Virus record (IMG/VR): IMGVR_UViG_3300044606_000249
Span: 1-50,360 of that record
Source of the DNA: a virus
Taxonomy: Duplodnaviria > Caudoviricetes
Strand: one strand, 5' to 3'
Length of the DNA stretch: 50,360 bases
The notes below the pieces were generated by a model. That model was not told the DNA's origin. It saw only the letters and a list, made by a program, of their open reading frames with translations, and did not search any database. Position numbers and translations under genes: made by a program. Positions 1-15,466 of this stretch are shown here, piece by piece. Numbering within the stretch: position 1 is the stretch's first letter; every line of letters starts with the position of its first letter.

Positions 1-1110
1 ATGGCATCGAAGCGCAAGAAGGGTGCGCGGTGGGAGTTCGTCATCAAGCGGGCTGGGCTGCTCGAGAAGCCCGTCTATCTGACCTTCGACACCGAGGAAG
101 AGGGCGACATCTTCTGTCGCAACGTCGAGAAGCTGCTCGACCAAGGCATCATCCCCAACGACATCCGGCCCGAGTCCAGGCCGTCCACGCTTGGCAGTGT
201 GATCCGTGGATACCTGACCGAGGCGCACCCGTCGCTCAAGGATCAGGAAGTGCTCAGCACCGTACTGACGGCCAAGGGCGCCACGCCCGTCCTGAAGATC
301 GACGCCGCTTGGGTGGATGGGTGGATAGCCGAGATGAAGCAGGCCGACAAGCTCGCGCCGGCAACGATCCGGGCGAAGATCGGCGCGACCGCGCGGGCGT
401 GCGACTGGGCGATCAGGCGCAAGATGATCGCGTTACCCGATCATCCCTTCCGAACCCTGCCGGACGGTTATGCGACTTACAACGCGAAGGACGCCGCGGT
501 GGCCGGTGCGCGACGCGAGGACGTTGAGCGAGATCGGCGGCTCGACGGCGACGAAGAGAAGCGGATCCGCGAGGTGATCTCTGCCGGCGTGCTGGCGAGA
601 AAGCAGCGGCCCCGGGTGATCGAGGAAGCCGCCGCCCTGATGGTGGATTTCGACCTGGCGATCGAGACCGGCATGCGCATGCGCGAGCGCTACACGCTGG
701 CCTGCGACCAGGTGGATCTGCGCGGGCGGCAGATCGTGCTCGACAAGACTAAGAACGGCGACAGTCGGGAGGTGCCGCTATCGTCCGTGGCACTGCGCGT
801 TGTGGGCGAGCAGCTCGAGCGGCGCAAGGGCGAGCAGTGGCTGTGGCCGTGGTTCGATGGCGACTTCCGGCCGTACCAGCTGAAGATTCGCTCGAACTGG
901 CTGTCGAAGTTGTACGCCGACATCTTCGATGCGGCCGGTTGCCCGGATCTGCGCGAGCATGACCTGCGGCATGAGGCCACGTCGCGCTTCTTCGAGCGGA
1001 CCCAGCTGCCTGCCGAGGCGATCATGAAGATCACGGGACACAAGACGCACAAGATGGTCATGCGTTACCTGCGGCTACGCGGCTCGTCGCTGGCGGCGCA
1101 TCTGTGGTGA
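1..1110 (+). CDS. int: Tyrosine recombinase / phage integrase
   Basis: Catalytic motifs TGMR (R), KTKNG (K), HDLRH (HxxR), TGH, and MRY (Tyr). Confidence 0.95.
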   Translation: MASKRKKGARWEFVIKRAGLLEKPVYLTFDTEEEGDIFCRNVEKLLDQGIIPNDIRPESRPSTLGSVIRGYLTEAHPSLKDQEVLSTVLTAKGATPVLKIDAAWVDGWIAEMKQADKLAPATIRAKIGATARACDWAIRRKMIALPDHPFRTLPDGYATYNAKDAAVAGARREDVERDRRLDGDEEKRIREVISAGVLARKQRPRVIEEAAALMVDFDLAIETGMRMRERYTLACDQVDLRGRQIVLDKTKNGDSREVPLSSVALRVVGEQLERRKGEQWLWPWFDGDFRPYQLKIRSNWLSKLYADIFDAAGCPDLREHDLRHEATSRFFERTQLPAEAIMKITGHKTHKMVMRYLRLRGSSLAAHLW

Positions 1111-3179: not shown

Positions 3180-3412
3180 TCTCCATCCTCCTGTCTCGCC
3201 CGCACCGCGCGATTGATTGCGCGGCGGATGTGGGGCCATTCGTCTGCATCGAAAGCGATGCGCTGTTCGCCGTGCTCTTCGGTGTTCTGGCGCACGACGA
3301 GGAATTCGCCGCCGCCTTCGTCGTCGAGCTCGACCGTCGTGGCGTGCTCGCTGAAGGTTGGCTCGCCAGCGGGCGCGACGATGAATTTGATGGGGCGGAG
3401 GTGGTAGCTCAT
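3176..3412 (-). CDS. Hypothetical phage protein
   Basis: Starts MSYHLRPIKF, coupled to the methyltransferase stop. Confidence 0.7.
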   Translation of the reverse strand: MSYHLRPIKFIVAPAGEPTFSEHATTVELDDEGGGEFLVVRQNTEEHGEQRIAFDADEWPHIRRAINRAVRARQEDGE

Positions 3413-4881
3413 GCTGCCTCCAGTTGCCGCAGTTCGCGGGCGGTGAATGTCATCAGGTCGGGCACGTTCGCCCGGGCCAGTGCTGCCGCCAGCGGCGGGC
3501 TGACGCTGTTGCCGCACATGCGCACCTGGGCTCGCTTGGGCAGGCGCTTGCCGTTGATCACCGGGGCGATCTGGTACGACTCGGGGAAGCCCTGCGCACG
3601 GTAGAGCTCGCGCGGCTCGAGCATGCGCATGCCGATGTCGGCGATGCGGTATTGCTGCTGATCGACCGTGACGAGGCCGAAGCGGTCGACGGTGGGGATG
3701 GTGTGCAGCGGGTCGCTGAGGTGCTGATCCTGCCCGCCCTCGCCGTAGTACTTGGTCAGGAAGGCCGTCACCAGGGCGTGGTGGTCTTGCGTGGTGACGG
3801 TGTGCATGGGGTCGGTCATCGGCGCACCGGGGCCGGTGTAGTTGCCGCCGAAGTGCTTGGCGAGGAACGCGCAGACCAGCGCATGCTTTGCGCCGCCGGC
3901 CACGACGGTACCGAGCGGCTTGTCGAGGCCGGGCACGCGCGGCGCCTGGCCGGTGCGCTCGCCGTAGCCGGTCTGGATCAGGGTGGGGGCCACCAACGCA
4001 TAGCCATTCTCGGATGTGACCGTCTGAAGGGGGGCTGTCAGTGCCTGACCGCGGAAGTACTCGTAGGCATGATTCACCTTCACGATGAACGGGGAGGCGC
4101 TATCGACCACATACTTCTGAATCCCGCGGGCAATTCTGCGCATCGTGTTCTCAGCCAGCGGCTTGGCGCGGTCGAAGATGCTCGGGCAGGGCAGGGACCA
4201 GTCGATGCACTCGGCAGCCGTGCGCCACGGTTTGAGCGTGCGTGCCTTCACGCCGGCAGAGCCCGGTGCGCCGTGCGTGGGTGCTGGCCACACGATGGGC
4301 TGGCCGTCGCAGCGGGCGACGAGGAACAGCCGCTTGCGCGTGGTTGGGGCGCCGTAGTCGCAGGCGCGCAGTTCGCGCCACTCGACCGCGTAGCCCAGTT
4401 CCTGAAGCTGGCGAACGAAGTCGCGGAAGGTGTGGCCGCGCCGATCGGGGCAGGGCGTGCCGTCGTCGCGCAGTGGGCCCCACGTCTGAAACTCTTCGAC
4501 GTTCTCGAGGATGATCACCCGCGGGCGCACCAGCGCGGCCCACCTCACCGCGACCCACGCCAGGCCACGGATGCGCTTGTCGCGCGGCTTGCCGCCCTTG
4601 GCCTTGCTGAAGTGCTTGCAGTCGGGGCTGAACCAAGCAAGCCCGACCGGGCGGCCCTGCGTGACGGCCAGCGGGTCGATGTCCCACACGCTTTCGCAGT
4701 AGTGCTCGGTCTGCGGGTGGTTGAGCGTGTGCATGGCCACGGCTTCGGGGTCGTGGTTGATGGCGATATCGACGTGCCGGCCGAGCGCAAGCTCGATGCC
4801 GCAAGAGGCGCCACCGCCGCCGGCGAAGTTGTCGACGATGAGTTCGCGCTGCAAGTCGAGGATGAACTGGTCGCGGATCAT
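3409..4881 (-). CDS. Orphan DNA (cytosine-5)-methyltransferase
   Basis: C5-MTase motifs: FAGGGG (I), SPDC (IV), ENV (VI), RKR (VIII), GNSV (X). No adjacent restriction endonuclease. Confidence 0.93.
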   Translation of the reverse strand: MIRDQFILDLQRELIVDNFAGGGGASCGIELALGRHVDIAINHDPEAVAMHTLNHPQTEHYCESVWDIDPLAVTQGRPVGLAWFSPDCKHFSKAKGGKPRDKRIRGLAWVAVRWAALVRPRVIILENVEEFQTWGPLRDDGTPCPDRRGHTFRDFVRQLQELGYAVEWRELRACDYGAPTTRKRLFLVARCDGQPIVWPAPTHGAPGSAGVKARTLKPWRTAAECIDWSLPCPSIFDRAKPLAENTMRRIARGIQKYVVDSASPFIVKVNHAYEYFRGQALTAPLQTVTSENGYALVAPTLIQTGYGERTGQAPRVPGLDKPLGTVVAGGAKHALVCAFLAKHFGGNYTGPGAPMTDPMHTVTTQDHHALVTAFLTKYYGEGGQDQHLSDPLHTIPTVDRFGLVTVDQQQYRIADIGMRMLEPRELYRAQGFPESYQIAPVINGKRLPKRAQVRMCGNSVSPPLAAALARANVPDLMTFTARELRQLEAA

Positions 4882-5306
4882 GCGGCGCCCTCCGTCATGC
4901 CCAGCTCCTCCGCCCTGTTCGCGATCAGCTGCGTCTTCACGATGCTGCCGATCTCGTACACATCCATCTTTCGATATGCCCGCTTGCACTGATCGACGAC
5001 TGCCTGGCACTGCGCGACCAGCTCGGGCGGGATCGGCGTGCTGTAGCGCAGGCGGGCAACGATCTTGCGGGCGGGGTCGAGGTCGAGGCACAGCGTGTAG
5101 CGGGCGTCGATGCGCTCCCACAGGGCGATCCAGCCTTCCATCGCGGCGGGAATCTCGTACCAGACGCCATCAGGCGGGTTGAGGAACACGGGAGCGCCCT
5201 GGATCTCGTGGATCCAGCCGTCGGCGAGCTTCGCGAGCATCGCGTCGATGCAGCCAAAGGCCTTCATCATGTCCGCGATGGTGGGGCGGCGAATGCGGCG
5301 GGTCAT
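4878..5306 (-). CDS. Hypothetical phage protein
   Basis: Starts MTRRIRRPTIADMMKAF, with coupled start/stop overlaps. Confidence 0.7.
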   Translation of the reverse strand: MTRRIRRPTIADMMKAFGCIDAMLAKLADGWIHEIQGAPVFLNPPDGVWYEIPAAMEGWIALWERIDARYTLCLDLDPARKIVARLRYSTPIPPELVAQCQAVVDQCKRAYRKMDVYEIGSIVKTQLIANRAEELGMTEGAA

Positions 5307-9468: not shown

Positions 9469-10185
9469 TCAAGCGTGCATCAGCGACCCGGCCACACTCA
9501 GCGCGGCGCGGCTGCATTCGGTGCGGCAGCGGGTGTTGCCCTGGGCGCCGCGGGCCTCGATGCGCTCGGCGGCAAGAATCTCGGCCAGGCCAACGGCGAA
9601 CAGCTGTTTCAGGGGGAGAACGTCGCGGATGCTGGCGCGAGGCTTCAGGCCGCGAAGCTGGCGGATCTCTTCGGCTTTGCCGCCCACGATGGGCTTGTAG
9701 ATCTCGTTGGTGCAGTCGCCGTAGCCGCGCCCCTCGACGCCGTGCGCTTGCAGCGTGGCGGTGAAGCGGTTGCGGGCGACTTTGCCCTGCATGCGGGTGG
9801 CCAGCCACGCCTGGTCTTCGTGCGAGGCGCGGTCGGCGATCTCGGCGGCCAGGGTGACGTCGCCGCTGGCTACGCGCTCCTCAAGCTCGATCAGTGCGCG
9901 GCGGATGGCGCGGCCTTGGTCGGTGCGCTCAACCATCGCCAGCTCTTTGGCGGTGGTCAGCGTCAGCAGGTAGTCCTTGCGAGGGCGGCCTGTTTTTCCC
10001 GGGGTTTTACTGGAAATTGAGTAAAAGTCCCGGCCGTCTTCGAACTCATACTCGCGGATGCGCGCAGCGATCCAGTCGTTGAAGCGGGTGCCGTTGTCGA
10101 GTCGCTTGTGCAGCTCGCGTGCATCGATGCCGTGGCGGTCGGCGCCGGCCTGGGTGATCGTGCGGAAGGTGAGGGTCGGGTGCAT
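9469..10185 (-). CDS. ant: AntA/AntB-family antirepressor
   Basis: N-terminal IDARELHKRL...TRFNDWI..RI.EYEF.DG.DF...GRP.KDYLLT...AKELAMVERT (AntA). First gene after PL. Confidence 0.85.
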   Translation of the reverse strand: MHPTLTFRTITQAGADRHGIDARELHKRLDNGTRFNDWIAARIREYEFEDGRDFYSISSKTPGKTGRPRKDYLLTLTTAKELAMVERTDQGRAIRRALIELEERVASGDVTLAAEIADRASHEDQAWLATRMQGKVARNRFTATLQAHGVEGRGYGDCTNEIYKPIVGGKAEEIRQLRGLKPRASIRDVLPLKQLFAVGLAEILAAERIEARGAQGNTRCRTECSRAALSVAGSLMHA

Positions 10186-10214
10186 CGCTGTCTCCAAAAC
10201 GAGTGCTTGGAAAC

Positions 10215-10256
10215 AAGATACACGGATACGTGTGATCTGACAACACGAAAATGAGT
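10215..10256 (-). promoter_or_regulatory. PL promoter with OL operators
   Basis: -35 TTGTCA (10243-10238), 17-nt spacer, -10 TATCTT (10220-10215). Operator ACACG-GATA-CGTGT at 10220-10233 and degenerate copy ACACG-AAAA-TGAGT at 10243-10256. Confidence 0.8.
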
Positions 10257-10316
10257 ATTTCGGTAAGGGCCTATCCCGCCCTGCCTCAGGAAGCAGAGCC
10301 GCCAAAAGGCATGCGC

Positions 10317-10366: not shown

Positions 10367-12001
10367 TCAGACCGTAAGGTCTTCTTCAAGCTCGACTGTG
10401 GGTTCGTATTCAAGCTGGTGCTCGGTCCATTCCTGCGCGATGGCGGGGTTCTCGCGAATCTGCTGTTCGATGCGCAAGGTCTCCCGGTAGGCGTGCGCTT
10501 CGGCAGTCATTGTCCAGTGCGCGGCCAGGCCCATGGCTTCAACCTCGCGTCGAATGTCTGCCAGGCTGACCTTGAAGAACTCCTTTCGCGGATTCACCTT
10601 GTTCATCTGCTGCTGAAGGAAGCGGCGGTGCAGGGTGCGCTCAAGGCCGGGGGCGTCTTCGCTATACAACATGGCGTGGATGTCGAATTCGAAGGGCACG
10701 CTGGCGTCGCCCAACTCGCGCACGCGGTCCTTGGGTTCGAGGCGGCGTGTCATGCCGATCTTGAACACTTCTTCACCAAACGAGCCGATGTTCGAGATGA
10801 TGTAGACGTGGCCGGTGCGGGTCTGCTGCGCCATGGACAGGGCGCGTTGGTTCTTCTCCTCGGCCGCGACCAGGCGGTCTTGAAGCTCGGCGAGCTTGGC
10901 CTCGTATTCGGCACGCTGGGCCTCATTGGCTGTTGCAACTTGCTGCTGCACCTTCTCCATGGCCTTGCGGATCATCTCCTCTTCCTTGGCGGCTTCCTTC
11001 ATCGCGCGTTCGTATTCGCGCCGCGCCTTTTCCTCTTCGCGGATCTGCTCGCGGATCTGGCGTTGCTCCTCGCGTTCCTGCTCCTTGAGGGCGCGGGCGA
11101 CCGCTGCCCACTTCAACTCAGCCAGCCGAGCGTCGAGGTAGTCAGTTGTGATCTTAGCGTCCCGAAACGCGCGGCCGCTGTGGTTCACAAGCGCGAAGGC
11201 GTCTCGAATCTCTTGAGCCAGCATGCCATAGTTGTCGCTCTTGCCTCGGGCTAGGATGGTGTCGACCTTTCCGTTGAAGGCGTCGATGACGAAGTTGATA
11301 GCGATCTGTCGGCGCGTGTCTTCAACATAACCGCACGTCGCTGCCCGGCCGGCGCGGATTAGTGCGCGCGTGGTGTCGCGTGCTTGCTTCAGTGATGCGC
11401 CGGCCTCCGTGTGGCCGAAATCGTCTGCAAGCTCGTCGAGCAGGCTGTAGGTGGGGATGATGTACTGATCACCGTATCCCTTGATCACGTTCTGCATTGC
11501 AGTTGCGGCGTCCGCGAACTCGTCTGCGCGATTCTTGATGGCGTACGCCTCGCCGGCGATCTCTTCAGCACGGCGCTTTGCCGCATCGATGATTCTGCCT
11601 GCTTCGGCCGCGGCGGCCTCGAGCTTCGCCTCAGCCTGTGCATGCCTATCTGCTGCTGCTTGGTTGATGCTCTTGCGTTGGGCGTTGGCTTCGTCGATCA
11701 CCCTGCGCGCTTCGGCTTGTGCGTCAGCGATCTGGCGGAACTGGGAGAGCAGGGCGACTTCTGCCTCGAGCTGAGTGTTGCGGGCATCCAGCCCCATAGC
11801 TCGATCTGCCAAGCGTTTATTGTCAGCACTGAGGTTGGCGTTCTCTTCCCGACTTTGATCCAGATCTTGCTGCGCTTGGGCAAGTTTCCATTGAAGCTCT
11901 GCCGCCTTCTTTTCACGCTCTGCGGCGGTCTGCTCAGCTGCTCGCTTCAGCACCCAAAGAGCGATCGCAGCGACGAGCGCGATGATGAACAGGATCTCCA
12001 T
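10367..12001 (-). CDS. TM + coiled-coil + DUF4041 + T5orf172/MUG113 GIY-YIG nuclease; PD-lambda-1/SNIPE-like anti-phage protein
   Basis: N-terminal TM MEILFIIALVAAIALWVL. DUF4041-like AFNGKVD...YLDARLAEL. C-terminal GHVYIISNIGSFGEEVFKIGMTRRLEP..RV.ELGDASVPF.FDIHA...LE..LH...VN.RKEFF. Confidence 0.88.
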   Translation of the reverse strand: MEILFIIALVAAIALWVLKRAAEQTAAEREKKAAELQWKLAQAQQDLDQSREENANLSADNKRLADRAMGLDARNTQLEAEVALLSQFRQIADAQAEARRVIDEANAQRKSINQAAADRHAQAEAKLEAAAAEAGRIIDAAKRRAEEIAGEAYAIKNRADEFADAATAMQNVIKGYGDQYIIPTYSLLDELADDFGHTEAGASLKQARDTTRALIRAGRAATCGYVEDTRRQIAINFVIDAFNGKVDTILARGKSDNYGMLAQEIRDAFALVNHSGRAFRDAKITTDYLDARLAELKWAAVARALKEQEREEQRQIREQIREEEKARREYERAMKEAAKEEEMIRKAMEKVQQQVATANEAQRAEYEAKLAELQDRLVAAEEKNQRALSMAQQTRTGHVYIISNIGSFGEEVFKIGMTRRLEPKDRVRELGDASVPFEFDIHAMLYSEDAPGLERTLHRRFLQQQMNKVNPRKEFFKVSLADIRREVEAMGLAAHWTMTAEAHAYRETLRIEQQIRENPAIAQEWTEHQLEYEPTVELEEDLTV

Positions 12002-12035
12002 TGCATTCCCTTGTGATATGGCAAAGCAATGGTAA

Positions 12036-12064
12036 ATAAAAAAGCCCGCTCATGGCGGGCTTGG
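12036..12064 (-). terminator. Rho-independent terminator, identical to 10317-10345
   Basis: ATAAAAAAGCCCGCTCATGGCGGGCTTGG. Confidence 0.85.
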
Positions 12065-12072
12065 GTTAAGGC

Positions 12073-12573
12073 TTAGTTTGCGTCAGGTGTCGGTTTGGGC
12101 GCTGCCATGTAGTGCCGGGTGATGTCGGACATGAAACGCTCCGTTCCCACTGCTTGTACCCACAGCACGATCAGCGCGCCCAGTGCGATGACTGAGGTGA
12201 TCAAGGCAGCGATCACATTGTCCAGAATGCCGCGCCACCACCTGGGGCGGATCTGGCGGACAAACGTGGACTTGAGTAATTCCTGCTCAGATACGCGAAT
12301 GCGTTCGGCAAGCACAGCCTCGCAGAACTCATCGAGATAGCGCTCGGCCTTGTCTCGATAGTCCTCAAGCTGGCCGGGGAGGTTCGCTGCACGATGGAAT
12401 TCGCGCAGGTCTTCGCTGGATGGGTTCTTTTGCTTCTCGGCTTCCAACTTCCGGATGTACTCGATCTTGCGCGCCTTATAGATCGAGTAGGCGATGGCTC
12501 CGACGATGTCGGATTCGTTCTCGACCAGTTCTTTGTAGGCCCAGCTGTAGCCCTCGTACGGATTGTCAGGCAT
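12073..12573 (-). CDS. Hypothetical 166-aa protein with C-terminal transmembrane helix
   Basis: Helical N-domain (YKELVENESDIVGAIAYSIYK...). TM segment NVIAALITSVIALGALIVLWV preceded by RPRWWRG. Start overlaps the upstream stop. Confidence 0.8.
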   Translation of the reverse strand: MPDNPYEGYSWAYKELVENESDIVGAIAYSIYKARKIEYIRKLEAEKQKNPSSEDLREFHRAANLPGQLEDYRDKAERYLDEFCEAVLAERIRVSEQELLKSTFVRQIRPRWWRGILDNVIAALITSVIALGALIVLWVQAVGTERFMSDITRHYMAAPKPTPDAN

Positions 12574-12760
12574 GCGTCTCGACGGTGCGGCGGGCCTCGG
12601 CATAGGCGCGGTTCATCTCTTCGCGCGAAATCTTCGTCTCGCGGATCACGCTCACCACTCGAAGAGGTAGCCCGGCAAGGTTGGCGGACTGCTTCTCCAC
12701 CATCGCTGCGTTGGCCTTGACCACCATCTCGCGGGTGATCAAGTTGCGCTTTGTATTCAT
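12566..12760 (-). CDS. Hypothetical 64-aa protein
   Basis: AGGGGG RBS. 8-nt overlap with the downstream TM gene. Internal repeat ITREMV..AN / ISREEMNRAY. Confidence 0.7.
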   Translation of the reverse strand: MNTKRNLITREMVVKANAAMVEKQSANLAGLPLRVVSVIRETKISREEMNRAYAEARRTVETHA

Positions 12761-12783
12761 GCTTCCCCCTGTGCCGCTTACGG

Positions 12784-12806
12784 AAAAAGCCGCTCTCGGG
12801 CGGCTT
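12784..12806 (-). terminator. Rho-independent terminator ending the cI-protease-small gene unit
   Basis: On the minus strand, AAGCCGC-CCGAGA-GCGGCTT hairpin whose 3' arm runs into a T5 tract. Confidence 0.75.
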
Positions 12807-12899
12807 AGGTCTGACTGCGCAACTCTATCATCGTTCAGCCGCCATTGTCTTGCTGCGTCCCTCCGATCGCCGTGCCGAGTGTCAGGGCGCGGCTACGAA

Positions 12900-13118
12900 T
12901 CAGCCGTGTTGGGCCTGGATGTGGGGTCGTTCTTCGACTTCGACTGCGAAGCCCTCGAAGCGCTTGGGGCTGTGCGACCTGACGTGCCACAGGTAGCGCG
13001 GCTCGACCCAGACCCGCAGGCTGGGCGGCTGGCTTTCGTGCCACACCAGCACGTTCGCCGCGCCGGCGGGCAGGCGCAGCGTGGCGAGCAGGGCGCGGGC
13101 GGCATCGTGCGGGGTCAT
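12900..13118 (-). CDS. 72-aa protein resembling a stand-alone protease pro-domain
   Basis: ATGA overlap with the protease stop. Sequence MTPHDAARALL...SLRVWVEP...SPKRFEGFAVEVEERP. Confidence 0.7.
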   Translation of the reverse strand: MTPHDAARALLATLRLPAGAANVLVWHESQPPSLRVWVEPRYLWHVRSHSPKRFEGFAVEVEERPHIQAQHG

Positions 13119-14335
13119 GGATAGTGGCCGGAAACCAGGGTCATCTGAAGCGCTTCCAGTATAGGCGCAATCGGCAGGATCAGAGAATAACCGCTCGAGG
13201 TGCCGGCCACGACCAGTCCCACCGCGCACGGCTCGCCGGCTTCGTTGCGGCTCACCACCAGCGAGCCCGAGTCGCCGGCCTGCGAGAATGGCGCGCCATT
13301 CTCCCCAAACACCATCATCACGTTGTTGAAGTACACCGTGGCATTGCCACCGACAGCGGCCACTTGGTAGCCAATGGGCTGCGGTGCCGGCGATTCGCCG
13401 ATGATGCGACCTGTGGTGTATCCGGTTGTCCGGCCTACCTTTTCGACCTGCATGCCGCCTACGGGGATGCTGACGGCGGACGGGGTGTCGTAGTAGCCGC
13501 CCTGCGACGATGACACGCGCTCGGGGTCGCGGATCAGGAACACTGCGGCGTCCGAGTTCTGCGAGATGTTCACGTTGGCAGGGCTGCCGTGGACCATGGG
13601 CAGGCCGCGATGATGCACGCCAATGGTGAAGGGGTCACATCCGGCGGGCGTGATGTCCATGTGCCCGGGCGCGAGGATCTTTTCGCCTCCTTCCGCATAG
13701 TTAGACAGCCCGCTCACGTGGTTGGCCGATAGGCCATACATTTGGCCCGCGGCATCGCGCACCAGGCAGCCCAGCGTGCCGGCGCCGGGGAAGCGCGCGG
13801 GGTGGACGGAGCTGCCGCAGGTGTAACGATCGTGGATCAGTCGATAGCTCGCCTGGTCGGCTGGCTGACGGTTGTCGCCGGCGCTGGCCTGGCCGTAGTA
13901 GAGATACTTGATGGCATTGCCGCCTTGCCAGCTCGGCATGTTCTTCAGTGCGCGCACGCCGATTCGTTTTCGGGTGAGCACGTAGACGCAGTGCTCGGGC
14001 TCGTTGAACAGCACGCCCGCGACTTGCTTGTTGCGCAAGGTGTACAGCGTGTCGCCCTGAGCGGGGAACAGCGTCCCATCCTCGGGCGCCGCCGCCTGCG
14101 CGCCGTGGCTGGTGACGGTGAGCGGGTCGAGCATGTGGTGCTGTTCTGCCCAGGCCAACAGGCTCTCGGCCACCTCGCGGGCGCTGCGGCGGGCGCTGGT
14201 GGCGTGGGTAGAGGCGTGCTCGGCGGCGGCCGTGAGGTTGGCGGTGTCAGCTTCTGCCGCCGGCAGTTCTGATGCGGCCGGGGTGATCTCGTCGTCAAGG
14301 TCGAGGCGGTCTGCTTGGTCGGGCGTGGTCGTCAT
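13115..14335 (-). CDS. Trypsin-like (S1/PA clan, Nal1-like) serine protease with no signal peptide
   Basis: GTLGCLV, His in SANHV, Asp in SDAAV, VEKVGRTTGYTTG, Ser in FSQAGDSGSLVV. Start is 5 nt after the cI stop. Confidence 0.88.
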   Translation of the reverse strand: MTTTPDQADRLDLDDEITPAASELPAAEADTANLTAAAEHASTHATSARRSAREVAESLLAWAEQHHMLDPLTVTSHGAQAAAPEDGTLFPAQGDTLYTLRNKQVAGVLFNEPEHCVYVLTRKRIGVRALKNMPSWQGGNAIKYLYYGQASAGDNRQPADQASYRLIHDRYTCGSSVHPARFPGAGTLGCLVRDAAGQMYGLSANHVSGLSNYAEGGEKILAPGHMDITPAGCDPFTIGVHHRGLPMVHGSPANVNISQNSDAAVFLIRDPERVSSSQGGYYDTPSAVSIPVGGMQVEKVGRTTGYTTGRIIGESPAPQPIGYQVAAVGGNATVYFNNVMMVFGENGAPFSQAGDSGSLVVSRNEAGEPCAVGLVVAGTSSGYSLILPIAPILEALQMTLVSGHYP

Positions 14336-14340
14336 GGTGG

Positions 14341-14739
14341 TCAACGCGGTTGGGCAAGTGCATCGAGCAGCACGACGACGGCGTCGCGCGTGCCTTGTGT
14401 GACGTGCGGGGCGGTGTCGAGCCGCATTGCGGCTGCGACGAGCGGGCTGGGCGCCTGTGGGGGTCGAGCGCCGATTGCGCCCTGCGCGTGCGCGTCGCCC
14501 ATCGGCGGCAGTGAGGCTGATGCGGGCTGGGCGACGGGATCGCCTTGCGCCATGGCAAGCCATTCCGGTCGCACGCCGCAAGCGATGGCGAGCTGAACGA
14601 CTTGCGGAGTTTCGTCCTGCACGCCCTGTTCAAGGCGACTGATGATCTGCTGCCTGACGCCTGAGCGTGCCTCAAGCTCTTTTTGAGAGATCTTGGCAAT
14701 TTCCTTGCGGGCGAAACGCAGTCTTTCACTGAAGTTCAT
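14341..14739 (-). CDS. cI: CI-like XRE/HTH repressor lacking the S24 peptidase domain
   Basis: ERLRFARKE...SQKELEARSGVRQQIISRLEQG...LAIACGVRPEWL. Divergent from cro. Only 132 aa. Confidence 0.88.
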   Translation of the reverse strand: MNFSERLRFARKEIAKISQKELEARSGVRQQIISRLEQGVQDETPQVVQLAIACGVRPEWLAMAQGDPVAQPASASLPPMGDAHAQGAIGARPPQAPSPLVAAAMRLDTAPHVTQGTRDAVVVLLDALAQPR

Positions 14740-14745
14740 GACGTG

Positions 14746-14816
14746 AAATTACACGGATCGAAGTAGCTCGCCAAACACGGTAACGTGTTGCCTGAATACA
14801 CAGATGCGTGTATTGT
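14746..14816. promoter_or_regulatory. OR region: three operators, PR (+) and PRM (-)
   Basis: Operators ACACG-N4-CGTGT at 14775-14788 (perfect), 14798-14811 and 14751-14764 (degenerate). PR: TTGCCT-17-TATTGT (14788-14816). PRM: TTGGCG-17-TAATTT (14774-14746), ending 6 nt before the cI ATG, implying a leaderless mRNA. Confidence 0.8.
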
Positions 14817-14837
14817 GTTTGCAAGGAGATTGCCTAC

Positions 14838-15086
14838 ATGAATACCGCCCTTCAGAAAGCCGTCGAGGTTGTCGGCAGCCAGGTTGCCTTGGCTGCCGCC
14901 TTGGGCGTTCGCCAGGGGCACGTCTGGAAGTGGCTCAACACCGCGGTCGAGGGCGTGCCGGCCAAGTACTGCCCGTCCATCGAGCGCGTCACCGGCGGAA
15001 AGGTCCGCTGTGAAGAGCTTCGCCCGGATGTTGACTGGGCTTACCTGCGCGGCACCTGCAGTGCTGAACACCACGAGGCCGCCTGA
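14838..15086 (+). CDS. cro: Cro-like (YdaS family) regulator
   Basis: ALQKAVEVVGSQVALAAALGVRQGHVWKW...IERVTGGKVRCEELRPDVDW. AGGAG RBS. Confidence 0.9.
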   Translation: MNTALQKAVEVVGSQVALAAALGVRQGHVWKWLNTAVEGVPAKYCPSIERVTGGKVRCEELRPDVDWAYLRGTCSAEHHEAA

Positions 15087-15088
15087 TG

Positions 15089-15466
15089 TCAGTCGATCAG
15101 AACAGCCGTTTCCCCGCCGCAGTCGGTACAGCGAAAGAGCGCTTCCTTGTCGCCGAGCTTGCCGAAGACGGGGTGCGGCCTGCTGCCGGTGCGGGTGATG
15201 TGCAACGACCCACAGTGGTCGCAGCACAGCCCCGTGTGCTGTCCAGACTGCAGCGCGTCGAGCTGCTGCTGAAGTATCCGCGCGCGGGCTTGTGCGTCGA
15301 GCAGGTCCGCCTGCGACTGTGCGTACTTCGCCTGAAGGTCGCGGTGCTGGGCTTCCTGTTCCGCCAGCTTGGCCTTGATGAGCCCAAGGTGCTCGAGAAG
15401 GATCGTTGCGCTGCCGTGCTCGGTGATCAGGCGCTCGATCGGACCGAAAAGCGTATCCAAGATCAT
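15089..15466 (-). CDS. Coiled-coil + Zn-ribbon protein inserted antisense between cro and cII
   Basis: AGGAG RBS. MILDTLFGPIERLITEHGSA..., with CDHC and CTDC motifs. Confidence 0.7.
   Translation of the reverse strand: MILDTLFGPIERLITEHGSATILLEHLGLIKAKLAEQEAQHRDLQAKYAQSQADLLDAQARARILQQQLDALQSGQHTGLCCDHCGSLHITRTGSRPHPVFGKLGDKEALFRCTDCGGETAVLID

Follow-up and report, generated by a model that had tools for sequence, protein, structure and literature searches.

What is a serine protease doing directly behind the repressor gene of a prophage? This question is raised by IMGVR_UViG_3300044606_000249, the IMG/VR record of a complete provirus of the Caudoviricetes (50,360 bases), which was analysed at its full length and is referred to here as the window. 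In its immunity region, a cI-like repressor gene is followed by a gene for a trypsin-like protease and then by a small gene, here called the partner; the three genes are co-directional, tightly packed and divergent from a cro-like gene. An initial annotation of this DNA noted that the repressor lacks an S24 self-cleavage domain, and suggested that the protease and a pro-domain-like partner form a switch that either cleaves the repressor or triggers abortive infection. The comparisons described below show that the protease and partner genes are a self-contained, horizontally mobile two-gene cassette that is independent of repressor type. The locus is most likely a prophage accessory or defence-type cassette, with an undescribed protein family, placed in a repressor operon.

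The three-gene unit

The genes of the unit are as follows, with positions given in the window.

14739..14341, minus strand: cI-like repressor, 132 amino acids, with an XRE-type helix-turn-helix (HTH; residues 8-61), an Ala/Pro-rich linker and a short C-terminal domain
14335..13115, minus strand: predicted NAL1-like trypsin-fold serine protease, 406 amino acids
13118..12900, minus strand: partner, 72 amino acids, with a predicted alpha-beta-beta-alpha-beta fold, overlapping the protease gene by ATGA

The stop codon of the repressor gene, TGA, is followed by the five nucleotides ccacc and then by the protease start codon, an ATG at 14335. All coordinates given in the initial annotation for this arrangement (an HTH-only cI of 132 residues, a five-nucleotide gap, a protease of 406 residues and an ATGA-overlapped gene for 72 residues) are correct.

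Conservation of the protease-partner pair

Homologous loci were collected from species-representative genomes (54 loci) and from IMG/VR (47 loci); 77 of them, 46 genomic and 31 proviral, have a full-length protease homologue. Among the first 54 loci, 51 have an open reading frame (ORF) of 67-105 codons whose start is no more than a few bases from the protease stop codon, often with a four-nucleotide overlap; of the three exceptions, two are truncated at the end of a contig. Some 49 of these 51 ORFs align with the partner of the window as a single family. The partner hidden Markov model has a same-strand match directly downstream of the protease gene at 74 of the 77 full-length loci and none at L046, L047 and L085; the positive loci include 30 of the 31 proviral ones, which had not been used in building the model. 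Adjacency of protease and partner at so many loci is not due to chance, and the partner gene is a genuine, conserved companion of the protease gene. Pairwise identities of the two proteins are also correlated (Spearman rho 0.67; 171 pairs from 19 loci).

The surroundings of the pair were scanned in 38 stand-alone loci, taking from each flank the two long ORFs closest to the pair (147 in all). No recurrent third gene was found beside the pair in this set, which includes IS1 (four ORFs), phage integrase (three), resolvase (two) and IS1595 (two). In several hosts, the pair has a low GC content at third codon positions (GC3) that fits recent horizontal acquisition: GC3 is 0.31-0.41 for the pair in locus L003 (3950-5303) versus 0.66-0.69 in the flanking long ORFs, and 0.29-0.32 for the pair in L013 (4004-5300) versus about 0.6 in the flanks.

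One explanation for a unit of this kind is that it promotes its own retention. Under this explanation, which resembles toxin-antitoxin (TA) addiction, the protease would be a growth-arresting toxin and the 72-residue protein a labile antidote, and the pair would stabilise a prophage or island with no dedicated anti-phage role. The compact two-gene organisation with translational coupling, the patchy, horizontally mobile distribution beside insertion sequence elements, integrases and resolvases, the atypically low GC3 in L003 and L013, and the failure to find a third conserved gene are all in keeping with an addiction module. However, neither protein matches a TA family, and a large enzyme encoded first with a small protein second is the less common gene order for TA pairs. 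Moreover, the partner is predicted to be compact and well folded, with a predicted local distance difference test (pLDDT) score of 95, unlike a partly disordered, labile antitoxin. Addiction also overlaps the reading that we favour, as many abortive-infection systems act like TA pairs. A purely stabilising role is considered quite unlikely, and ranks behind cleavage of the repressor, which is discussed below.

Repressor type and the proposed switch

The initial annotation cast the protease as a serine-protease analogue of ImmA that makes up for the S24 domain missing from the repressor. The repressor itself is as described: Pfam matches HTH families alone (HTH_3 at 1e-6, residues 8-61), with no Peptidase_S24 found. 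Thus, of the features of a lambda CI/LexA-type repressor, it has an XRE-type HTH and a position divergent from a cro-like gene but not the C-terminal Peptidase_S24. It also matches the PHROG "transcriptional repressor" families phrog_4 and phrog_2328 (~1e-10). Its nearest relatives are mostly HTH proteins of 100-180 residues, one of which is equal in length and 81% identical. Residues 67-132 (window 14341-14541, minus strand) correspond, at 65% identity, to the C-terminus of P0137, a different protein of 164 residues, which suggests that this part of the repressor is a modular, perhaps oligomerisation, domain exchanged among HTH proteins. The possibility that the gene is a truncated pseudogene of an S24-containing repressor was rejected because a relative of the same length exists at 81% identity, because close relatives are mostly short, and because the C-terminal 66 residues are found elsewhere.

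Repressors near other copies of the cassette were surveyed by an iterative local search seeded with the HTH of the window's repressor and an S24 domain, and gaps were measured to the first possible protease start. Of the 31 proviral loci, 22 have a repressor-like ORF upstream in the same orientation, with a gap of at most 200 nucleotides in 16; of the nine proviral loci without a repressor, four have less than 600 nucleotides of upstream sequence. An S24 domain was found by the local search in 20 of these 22 repressors, and Pfam confirmed Peptidase_S24 in ten of the ten repressors tested (nine from proviral loci and that of L011). Among the 46 genomic loci, seven have an HTH or S24 ORF on the same strand within ~1.1 kb upstream and three have one on the opposite strand; no HTH or S24 gene was found within 1.5 kb upstream, on either strand, in the other 36. 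Viral and genomic loci together give 28 cases, besides the window, of a same-strand repressor upstream of the cassette, with a gap of at most 200 nucleotides in 19, of which 16 are proviral. Many loci also have a divergent small HTH gene ~1 kb further upstream, the classic cI/cro layout.

The repressors and proteases of these loci have separate histories. Clustering of the repressor-linked loci at 80% identity, with the window left aside, gives 11 clusters of proteases and 14 of repressors. At L011 and L082 the S24 repressors are 88% identical and the proteases 35%; at L071 and L084 the proteases are 82% identical and the repressors 25%. Overall, the correlation of repressor identity with protease identity is only 0.39. 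The discordance of these two pairs of loci implies repeated independent insertion, or recombination, at the site behind cI. A tblastn search for relatives of the window's repressor beside the first 54 cassettes found none.

Given the S24-bearing repressors, the repressor-free loci and the shuffled lineages, the cassette is not tied to S24-less repressors or to any particular repressor, and is independent of repressor type. The initial annotation had named beforehand, as the result that would overturn its proposal, an occurrence of the pair apart from S24-less cI genes, and this is what the survey found; the idea that the protease stands in for a missing S24 domain is not supported.

A second reason to set the ImmA analogy aside comes from the protease class. 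ImmA is a zinc metalloprotease, and ImmA-type systems cleave the neighbouring repressor. The unit in the window resembles ImmR/ImmA of ICEBs1, and pairs of HTH and COG2856 proteins, in having a protease gene directly behind an HTH repressor gene in one operon. In contrast to these systems, the protease of the window matched only serine-protease families and is predicted to have a chymotrypsin fold, there is an extra small partner gene, and the pair has no obligatory link to a repressor (36 of 46 genomic loci are without one), the repressor usually having its own S24 domain when it is present. The cI-protease-partner system is therefore not an ImmR/ImmA pair, since the protease is of the wrong class and an obligatory link to the repressor is missing.

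A weaker form of the switch model does not require that S24 be replaced. In this form, the protease cleaves the repressor or another regulator of the lysis-lysogeny decision, providing RecA-independent or additional induction, with the partner as an inhibitor or sensor. The model draws on the position of the protease gene, five nucleotides after the repressor gene in the window and right behind repressor genes in 28 loci. The window's repressor has no S24 domain, and the pattern CTGT-N8-ACAG is absent from the 50 kb, although that absence is uninformative, as 0.6 matches to this LexA-box pattern would be expected by chance in the whole window. The cassettes at L024 and L036 likewise lie beside short HTH-only repressors (126 and 103 amino acids) similar to that of the window, and, on a direct reading that is speculative, the long Ala/Pro-rich linker of the repressor could be a cleavage site. 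Support of another kind comes from the rice protease NARROW LEAF 1 (NAL1), which is described in one study as degrading the transcription factor FZP inside a cage (PMC12012508). Against this, 20 of the 22 proviral repressors upstream of the cassette already have a self-cleavage domain (10 of 10 by Pfam), a repressor-like gene was not found near the cassette in 36 of 46 genomic loci, the histories of repressors and proteases disagree (L011/L082 and L071/L084; correlation 0.39), and the first 54 cassettes have no relative of the window's repressor beside them by tblastn. Cleavage of a lysis-lysogeny regulator is thus an unlikely function for the cassette.

A NAL1-like protease

The protease is predicted to be a cytoplasmic trypsin-fold enzyme (a double barrel of the chymotrypsin type) with an intact catalytic triad. 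The triad residues lie in the motifs SANHV (His206), SDAAV (Asp262) and GDSGS (Ser356), and are invariant in a family alignment of 22 sequences; no hydrophobic signal segment is visible on direct reading of the sequence. On both points the initial annotation was right. The AlphaFold2 (AF2) model of the protease (pLDDT 83.7) has a helix at 52-65, an N-domain at ~94-152 and the double-barrel protease domain at ~165-406. Within the N-domain, the elements are a helix at 94-103, strands at 105-111 and 116-121, a helix at 127-131 and a strand at 140-146, in the order alpha-beta-beta-alpha-beta. The N-terminus is acidic and predicted to be disordered over residues 1-46. Outside the window, this Ala-rich extension (window 14198-14335, minus strand) occurs in no more than a few of the protease's closest relatives (P0005, P0006 and P0010, and in shorter form P0017); most family members begin near residue 50.

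Several searches place the protease with NAL1. It matches Pfam Nal1_C (PF25819) with 37.7 bits, over a cut-off of 26.1 (E 1.7e-9). A search of the PDB with the family profile found rice NAL1 at E 2e-15 and alpha-lytic proteases weakly, and Foldseek with the model placed NAL1 chains at the top (E 9e-16, template modelling (TM) score ~0.5, ~16-19% identity), followed by enzymes of the alpha-lytic/SGPB type (E ~1e-9, TM by target ~0.73). The evidence for the N-domain is less firm: it aligns with NAL1 chain positions 102-211, a region that includes the ATP-binding domain, in a weak profile alignment (E 0.49 for that stretch alone), and a Pfam scan up to E 1 listed no match to the N-terminal domain family of NAL1. 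Peptidase_S64 matches over the C-terminal barrel at E 0.073, under the Pfam cut-off. Taken together, the profile and fold matches identify the protease as a bacterial homologue of rice NAL1 and a member of a NAL1-like family.

This family is large. Among 8000 candidates scored, at least 804 proteins match at E 1e-3 or better, from Alpha-, Beta- and Gammaproteobacteria, Myxococcota and others, and the closest named relative in this set is an "S1 family peptidase" of Thauera aromatica, at 84% identity. The protease also matches phrog_25502, a family of unknown function, across its full length (5.4e-83).

The parallels with NAL1 (reference structures PDB 7Y77, 8HAS-8HAU and 8PME-8PN2) include a homologous trypsin-fold domain with a His/Asp/Ser triad, a predicted structured domain that precedes the protease domain, and a predicted cytoplasmic location with no signal peptide. 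In the structural work on NAL1, the protease domain is described as preceded by an N-terminal domain and an ATP-binding domain (89-172), and the protein as forming a hexameric cage of two stacked trimers, in which the ATP-binding domain of one subunit contacts the protease domain of another (PMC12012508). There are also differences. The protease studied here is from phage and bacteria, and the similarity is distant (~16-19% identity, TM ~0.5). Moreover, the protease is accompanied by a 72-residue partner, and nothing comparable is seen for NAL1 in the available portion of that work (PMC12012508).

The partner and the N-domain of the protease

The partner is a small protein with a confident AF2 model (pLDDT 95) consisting of a helix at 3-14, strands at 21-26 and 33-38, a helix at 40-49 and a strand at 57-63; L10, P51 and G56 are near-invariant in the family alignment. 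It has no family in Pfam, PHROG, PADLOC or NCBIfam. Pfam searches with 38 homologues gave only scattered single chance matches, and all 34 database relatives are "hypothetical" or unnamed. No fused or longer forms of the partner were found among the 8000 candidates scored, which is weak evidence. Fold searches of the PDB and BFVD gave only generic small alpha/beta domains.

The initial annotation saw in the partner an echo of the N-terminal segment of the protease. BLASTP of the one against the other detects nothing (E 0.8), and comparison of small profiles gave a probability of 3%. With deeper profiles, built from ~120 proteases and ~70 partners, hhalign aligned partner residues 24-69 with protease residues 107-152 at 49% probability (E 1.7e-4), in the same register as had been noticed in the initial annotation; Pro51, near-invariant among partners, falls opposite Pro134, invariant among proteases. 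The order of secondary structure elements (helix-strand-strand-helix-strand) is also the same in the models of the partner and of the protease N-domain. Two further searches with the partner provide leads only: an Atlas structure search returned a cluster of 324-residue proteins, 64% of whose members have Nal1_C (TM 0.64), and an Atlas feature search returned a cluster with NAL1_N in 34% of members (0.76). The signal is weak but consistent, and is suggestive of a resemblance between the partner and the protease's own N-domain in predicted structure and profile, short of establishing it.

If the likeness is real, it would point to an ATP-binding or oligomerisation domain of the NAL1 type and not to a classical pro-region. 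The "pro-domain-like" label of the initial annotation is at best tentative, since searches of Pfam, Foldseek and VIA found no protease pro-region match. Enzymes of the alpha-lytic type are secreted, with a covalently attached pro-region that serves as foldase and inhibitor. The protease domain described here is related in fold to these S1 proteases, but its partner matched no pro-region family or structure and resembles the N-domain of the enzyme instead. Another analogy is with Ssy5 of yeast (Peptidase S64), a cytoplasmic chymotrypsin-fold protease that is held inactive, until a signal arrives, by a non-covalently bound inhibitory domain. The Pfam similarity to this family at the C-terminal barrel is weak, and not significant at family level. 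One difference is that the inhibitor of Ssy5 is its own cleaved pro-domain and not the product of a separate gene, whereas the window has a separate partner gene and the protease has no sign of autoprocessing. Complex prediction for protease residues 50-406 with the partner, from custom alignments, gave a score of 0.00 and no verdict, which has no bearing either way on binding.

The slot downstream of cI

The position of the cassette in the window recalls the abortive-infection genes rexAB and bstA of prophages. As set out in one study, bstA of Salmonella phage BTP1 lies downstream of cI, presumably on a shared promoter, and the cI-n region is a mosaic hotspot in which rexAB of lambda occupies the same site (PMC8585504). 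The cassette occupies this known rexAB/bstA slot, and is probably co-transcribed with cI in lysogeny, because it lies in the slot that holds rexAB in lambda and bstA in BTP1. The parallels extend to the co-directional arrangement directly downstream of the repressor gene, the presumably shared promoter, the probable terminator at the end, and an association with repressor loci that recurs across diverse prophages. However, rexAB and bstA have no sequence relationship to the pair (which has no PADLOC family at E 0.1 or better), the putative effector is a serine protease and not an ion channel/sensor pair or a DNA-associated protein of the BstA type, and many copies of the pair lie away from prophage repressors.

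The features around the trio are as follows.

14740..14807: control region of 68 nucleotides between the divergent cI (minus strand) and cro (plus strand) genes, with operators and promoters presumed
14808..15086, plus strand: cro-like gene, 92 amino acids (Pfam YdaS_toxin 7.5e-29, P22_Cro 2.3e-7; phrog_35 2.8e-23)
12806..12784, minus strand: terminator-like hairpin with a U-run from RNA folding, at the end of the cI-protease-partner unit
12785..15074, no strand assigned: mosaic unit of terminator, partner, protease, cI and cro, from contigs of public runs
10367..12001, minus strand: PD-Lambda-1 homologue, 544 amino acids, with DUF4041 and a T5orf172/GIY-YIG-type domain (PADLOC 5.8e-115; Pfam DUF4041, T5orf172 and MUG113; phrog_1847 6e-124)
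1-1110, plus strand: integrase, from the PHROG/Pfam annotation of the window

After the integrase, the window continues with leftward early and accessory genes, the divergent cI/cro pair, and then cII-like, DksA-like and primase/helicase genes in the rightward direction. The control region contains an inverted repeat with arms at 14750-14759 and 14803-14812, and a promoter scan of 12000-15300 called no sigma-70 consensus site. The terminator proposed in the initial annotation at 12784-12806 is plausible, not proven: a seven-base-pair GC-rich stem (AAGCCGC/GCGGCUU) followed by UUUUU is present 94 nucleotides beyond the partner gene, but it falls just under the threshold of the consensus scan, and its folding energy is unexceptional (z -0.73). 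A second terminator, of consensus quality, lies at 12062-12042. Between the two are overlapping small ORFs (12073-12760, minus strand), one encoding 64 residues with no family and the other 176 residues with a hydrophobic C-terminal segment and a match to phrog_22648, whose function is unknown. Further away, the minus strand encodes a C-5 cytosine DNA methyltransferase at 3409-5121 (Pfam DNA_methylase 6.7e-29; phrog_116).

Evidence that this part of the immunity region moves as a block came from contigs of close relatives in four coded public runs. The runs are of RNA libraries that may contain DNA, so the contigs give no reading on transcription, and flanks left uncovered in some runs reflect replaced sequence and not silence. 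In these contigs, block 12785-15074 is kept together at ~98-99% identity and both flanks are replaced by unrelated sequence. The contig of run X1 matches 12785-15074 with 33 differences, flanked by 605 and 590 unrelated letters, the 605 letters standing in place of the segment with the 64- and 176-residue genes. In run X3, 10342 is joined to 12785, and in X5 there are loose ends at 12785 and 15074. All three runs therefore part from the window at 12785, the foot of the hairpin; X1 and X5 do so at ~15074 as well, where cro ends. These joints indicate that the cro-cI-protease-partner block is exchanged as one mosaic unit among close relatives.

A defence gene lies close by. PD-Lambda-1 is a known single-gene defence system, and its homologue in the window is 0.9 kb downstream of the pair, of which it is not part. 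With this neighbour, the stretch separating cI from the early-left genes resembles a hotspot for defence or accessory genes. Beyond the homologue, an ORF of 278 codons at 9469-10305 (minus strand) weakly matches the PADLOC candidate PDC-S13 over its C-terminal 110 residues (E 7.4e-12). The 147 ORFs flanking stand-alone copies of the cassette likewise include matches to defence families, namely AbiEi/AbiEii, DpdF, reverse transcriptase, PD-T4-6, mad6 and PsyrT.

A proposed protease module expressed in the lysogen

The reading that we favour, held tentatively at somewhat short of an even chance, is that the cassette is an undescribed protease module in the slot downstream of the repressor, expressed in the lysogen and acting in defence or abortive infection. 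Its anatomical parts are near certain. The gene anatomy, the family membership, the conservation of the pair, its independence from repressor type, the hotspot position and the defence-gene neighbour are in hand, and from them we infer a function that would involve co-transcription with cI, binding of the partner to the protease, oligomerisation and a defence phenotype.

The mechanism may run as follows. The cassette has been placed in the slot behind the repressor gene, and the lysogen would express the protease module from a unit ending at the hairpin at 12806-12784. By analogy with NAL1, the protease would probably build an oligomeric cage, the N-domain of each subunit touching the protease domain of the next. 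The partner, which looks like a free-standing copy of the N-domain, could bind the protease and restrain or tune its assembly or activity until a trigger arrives, the likeliest trigger being superinfection by another phage. Release would then lead to proteolysis of host or phage targets and block the invader, by abortive infection or exclusion, in a manner similar to toxin and antitoxin. In its boldest form, the proposal is that the window contains the founding example of an undescribed mobile class of abortive-infection systems, in which a cage-forming, NAL1-homologous protease has its assembly or its access to substrates gated, until infection, by a separately encoded decoy of its ATP-binding-domain-like N-domain and is repeatedly placed in repressor operons, leading to constitutive expression in lysogens. 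This form is rather unlikely.

Several observations weigh against a defence module. The abortive-infection role raised in the initial annotation is made plausible by position and neighbours; these carry the case, because neither protein matches a PADLOC-DB v2 family at a threshold of E 0.1, or any NCBIfam family. Many of the genes that flank stand-alone copies, in the 38 loci scanned, are ordinary housekeeping genes. The likeness of the partner to the N-domain does not reach the usual level of significance: the probability is 3% for small profiles and 49% for deeper ones. NAL1 and Ssy5, the two characterised relatives of the protease, cleave transcription regulators, which fits a protease acting on the repressor or another regulator. 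Finally, tblastn found no homologue at E 1e-5 in 50,697 isolated-phage records, and megablast found no match in the same records; these two results say little, as records close to the window may be absent from the set.

The housekeeping neighbours also raise the possibility that the cassette is a lysogenic-conversion factor, with the protease remodelling a host regulator or pathway, the partner acting as adaptor or chaperone, and neither having anything to do with phage conflict or the lysogeny switch. Many stand-alone copies do lie among metabolic, flagellar and replication genes, and the family is broad, with its matches (at least 804) spread across Alpha-, Beta- and Gammaproteobacteria, Myxococcota and others. 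A role of this kind also has a precedent in the plant relative, which has a regulatory role in development (PMC12012508). While these points are consistent with a function in host physiology, no conserved neighbouring pathway accompanies the cassette, and such a function leaves unexplained both the recurrent placement behind prophage repressors and the association with mobile elements and defence genes. It is the least probable of the explanations weighed here.

Implications

The suggestion in the initial annotation that the pair is not a described system agrees with what was found: neither the pair nor any bacterial homologue of NAL1 is described in the literature covered, mainly open-access main texts, and PADLOC-DB v2 contains no model of the pair. 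The results correct the attractive but unsupported idea that the protease substitutes for the S24 domain of cI. They also show that the slot downstream of cI is a site of repeated insertion in proteobacterial prophages; in the window, it lies near a PD-Lambda-1 homologue. If the cassette is a defence or abortive-infection system, it would add a family of protease effectors, with at least 804 members, that is unlisted in current defence catalogues. If the favoured reading is true, it would also provide a bacterial function for relatives of NAL1, an agronomically important plant protease, and a simple two-protein model in which a free-standing copy of one domain of a protease regulates that protease.

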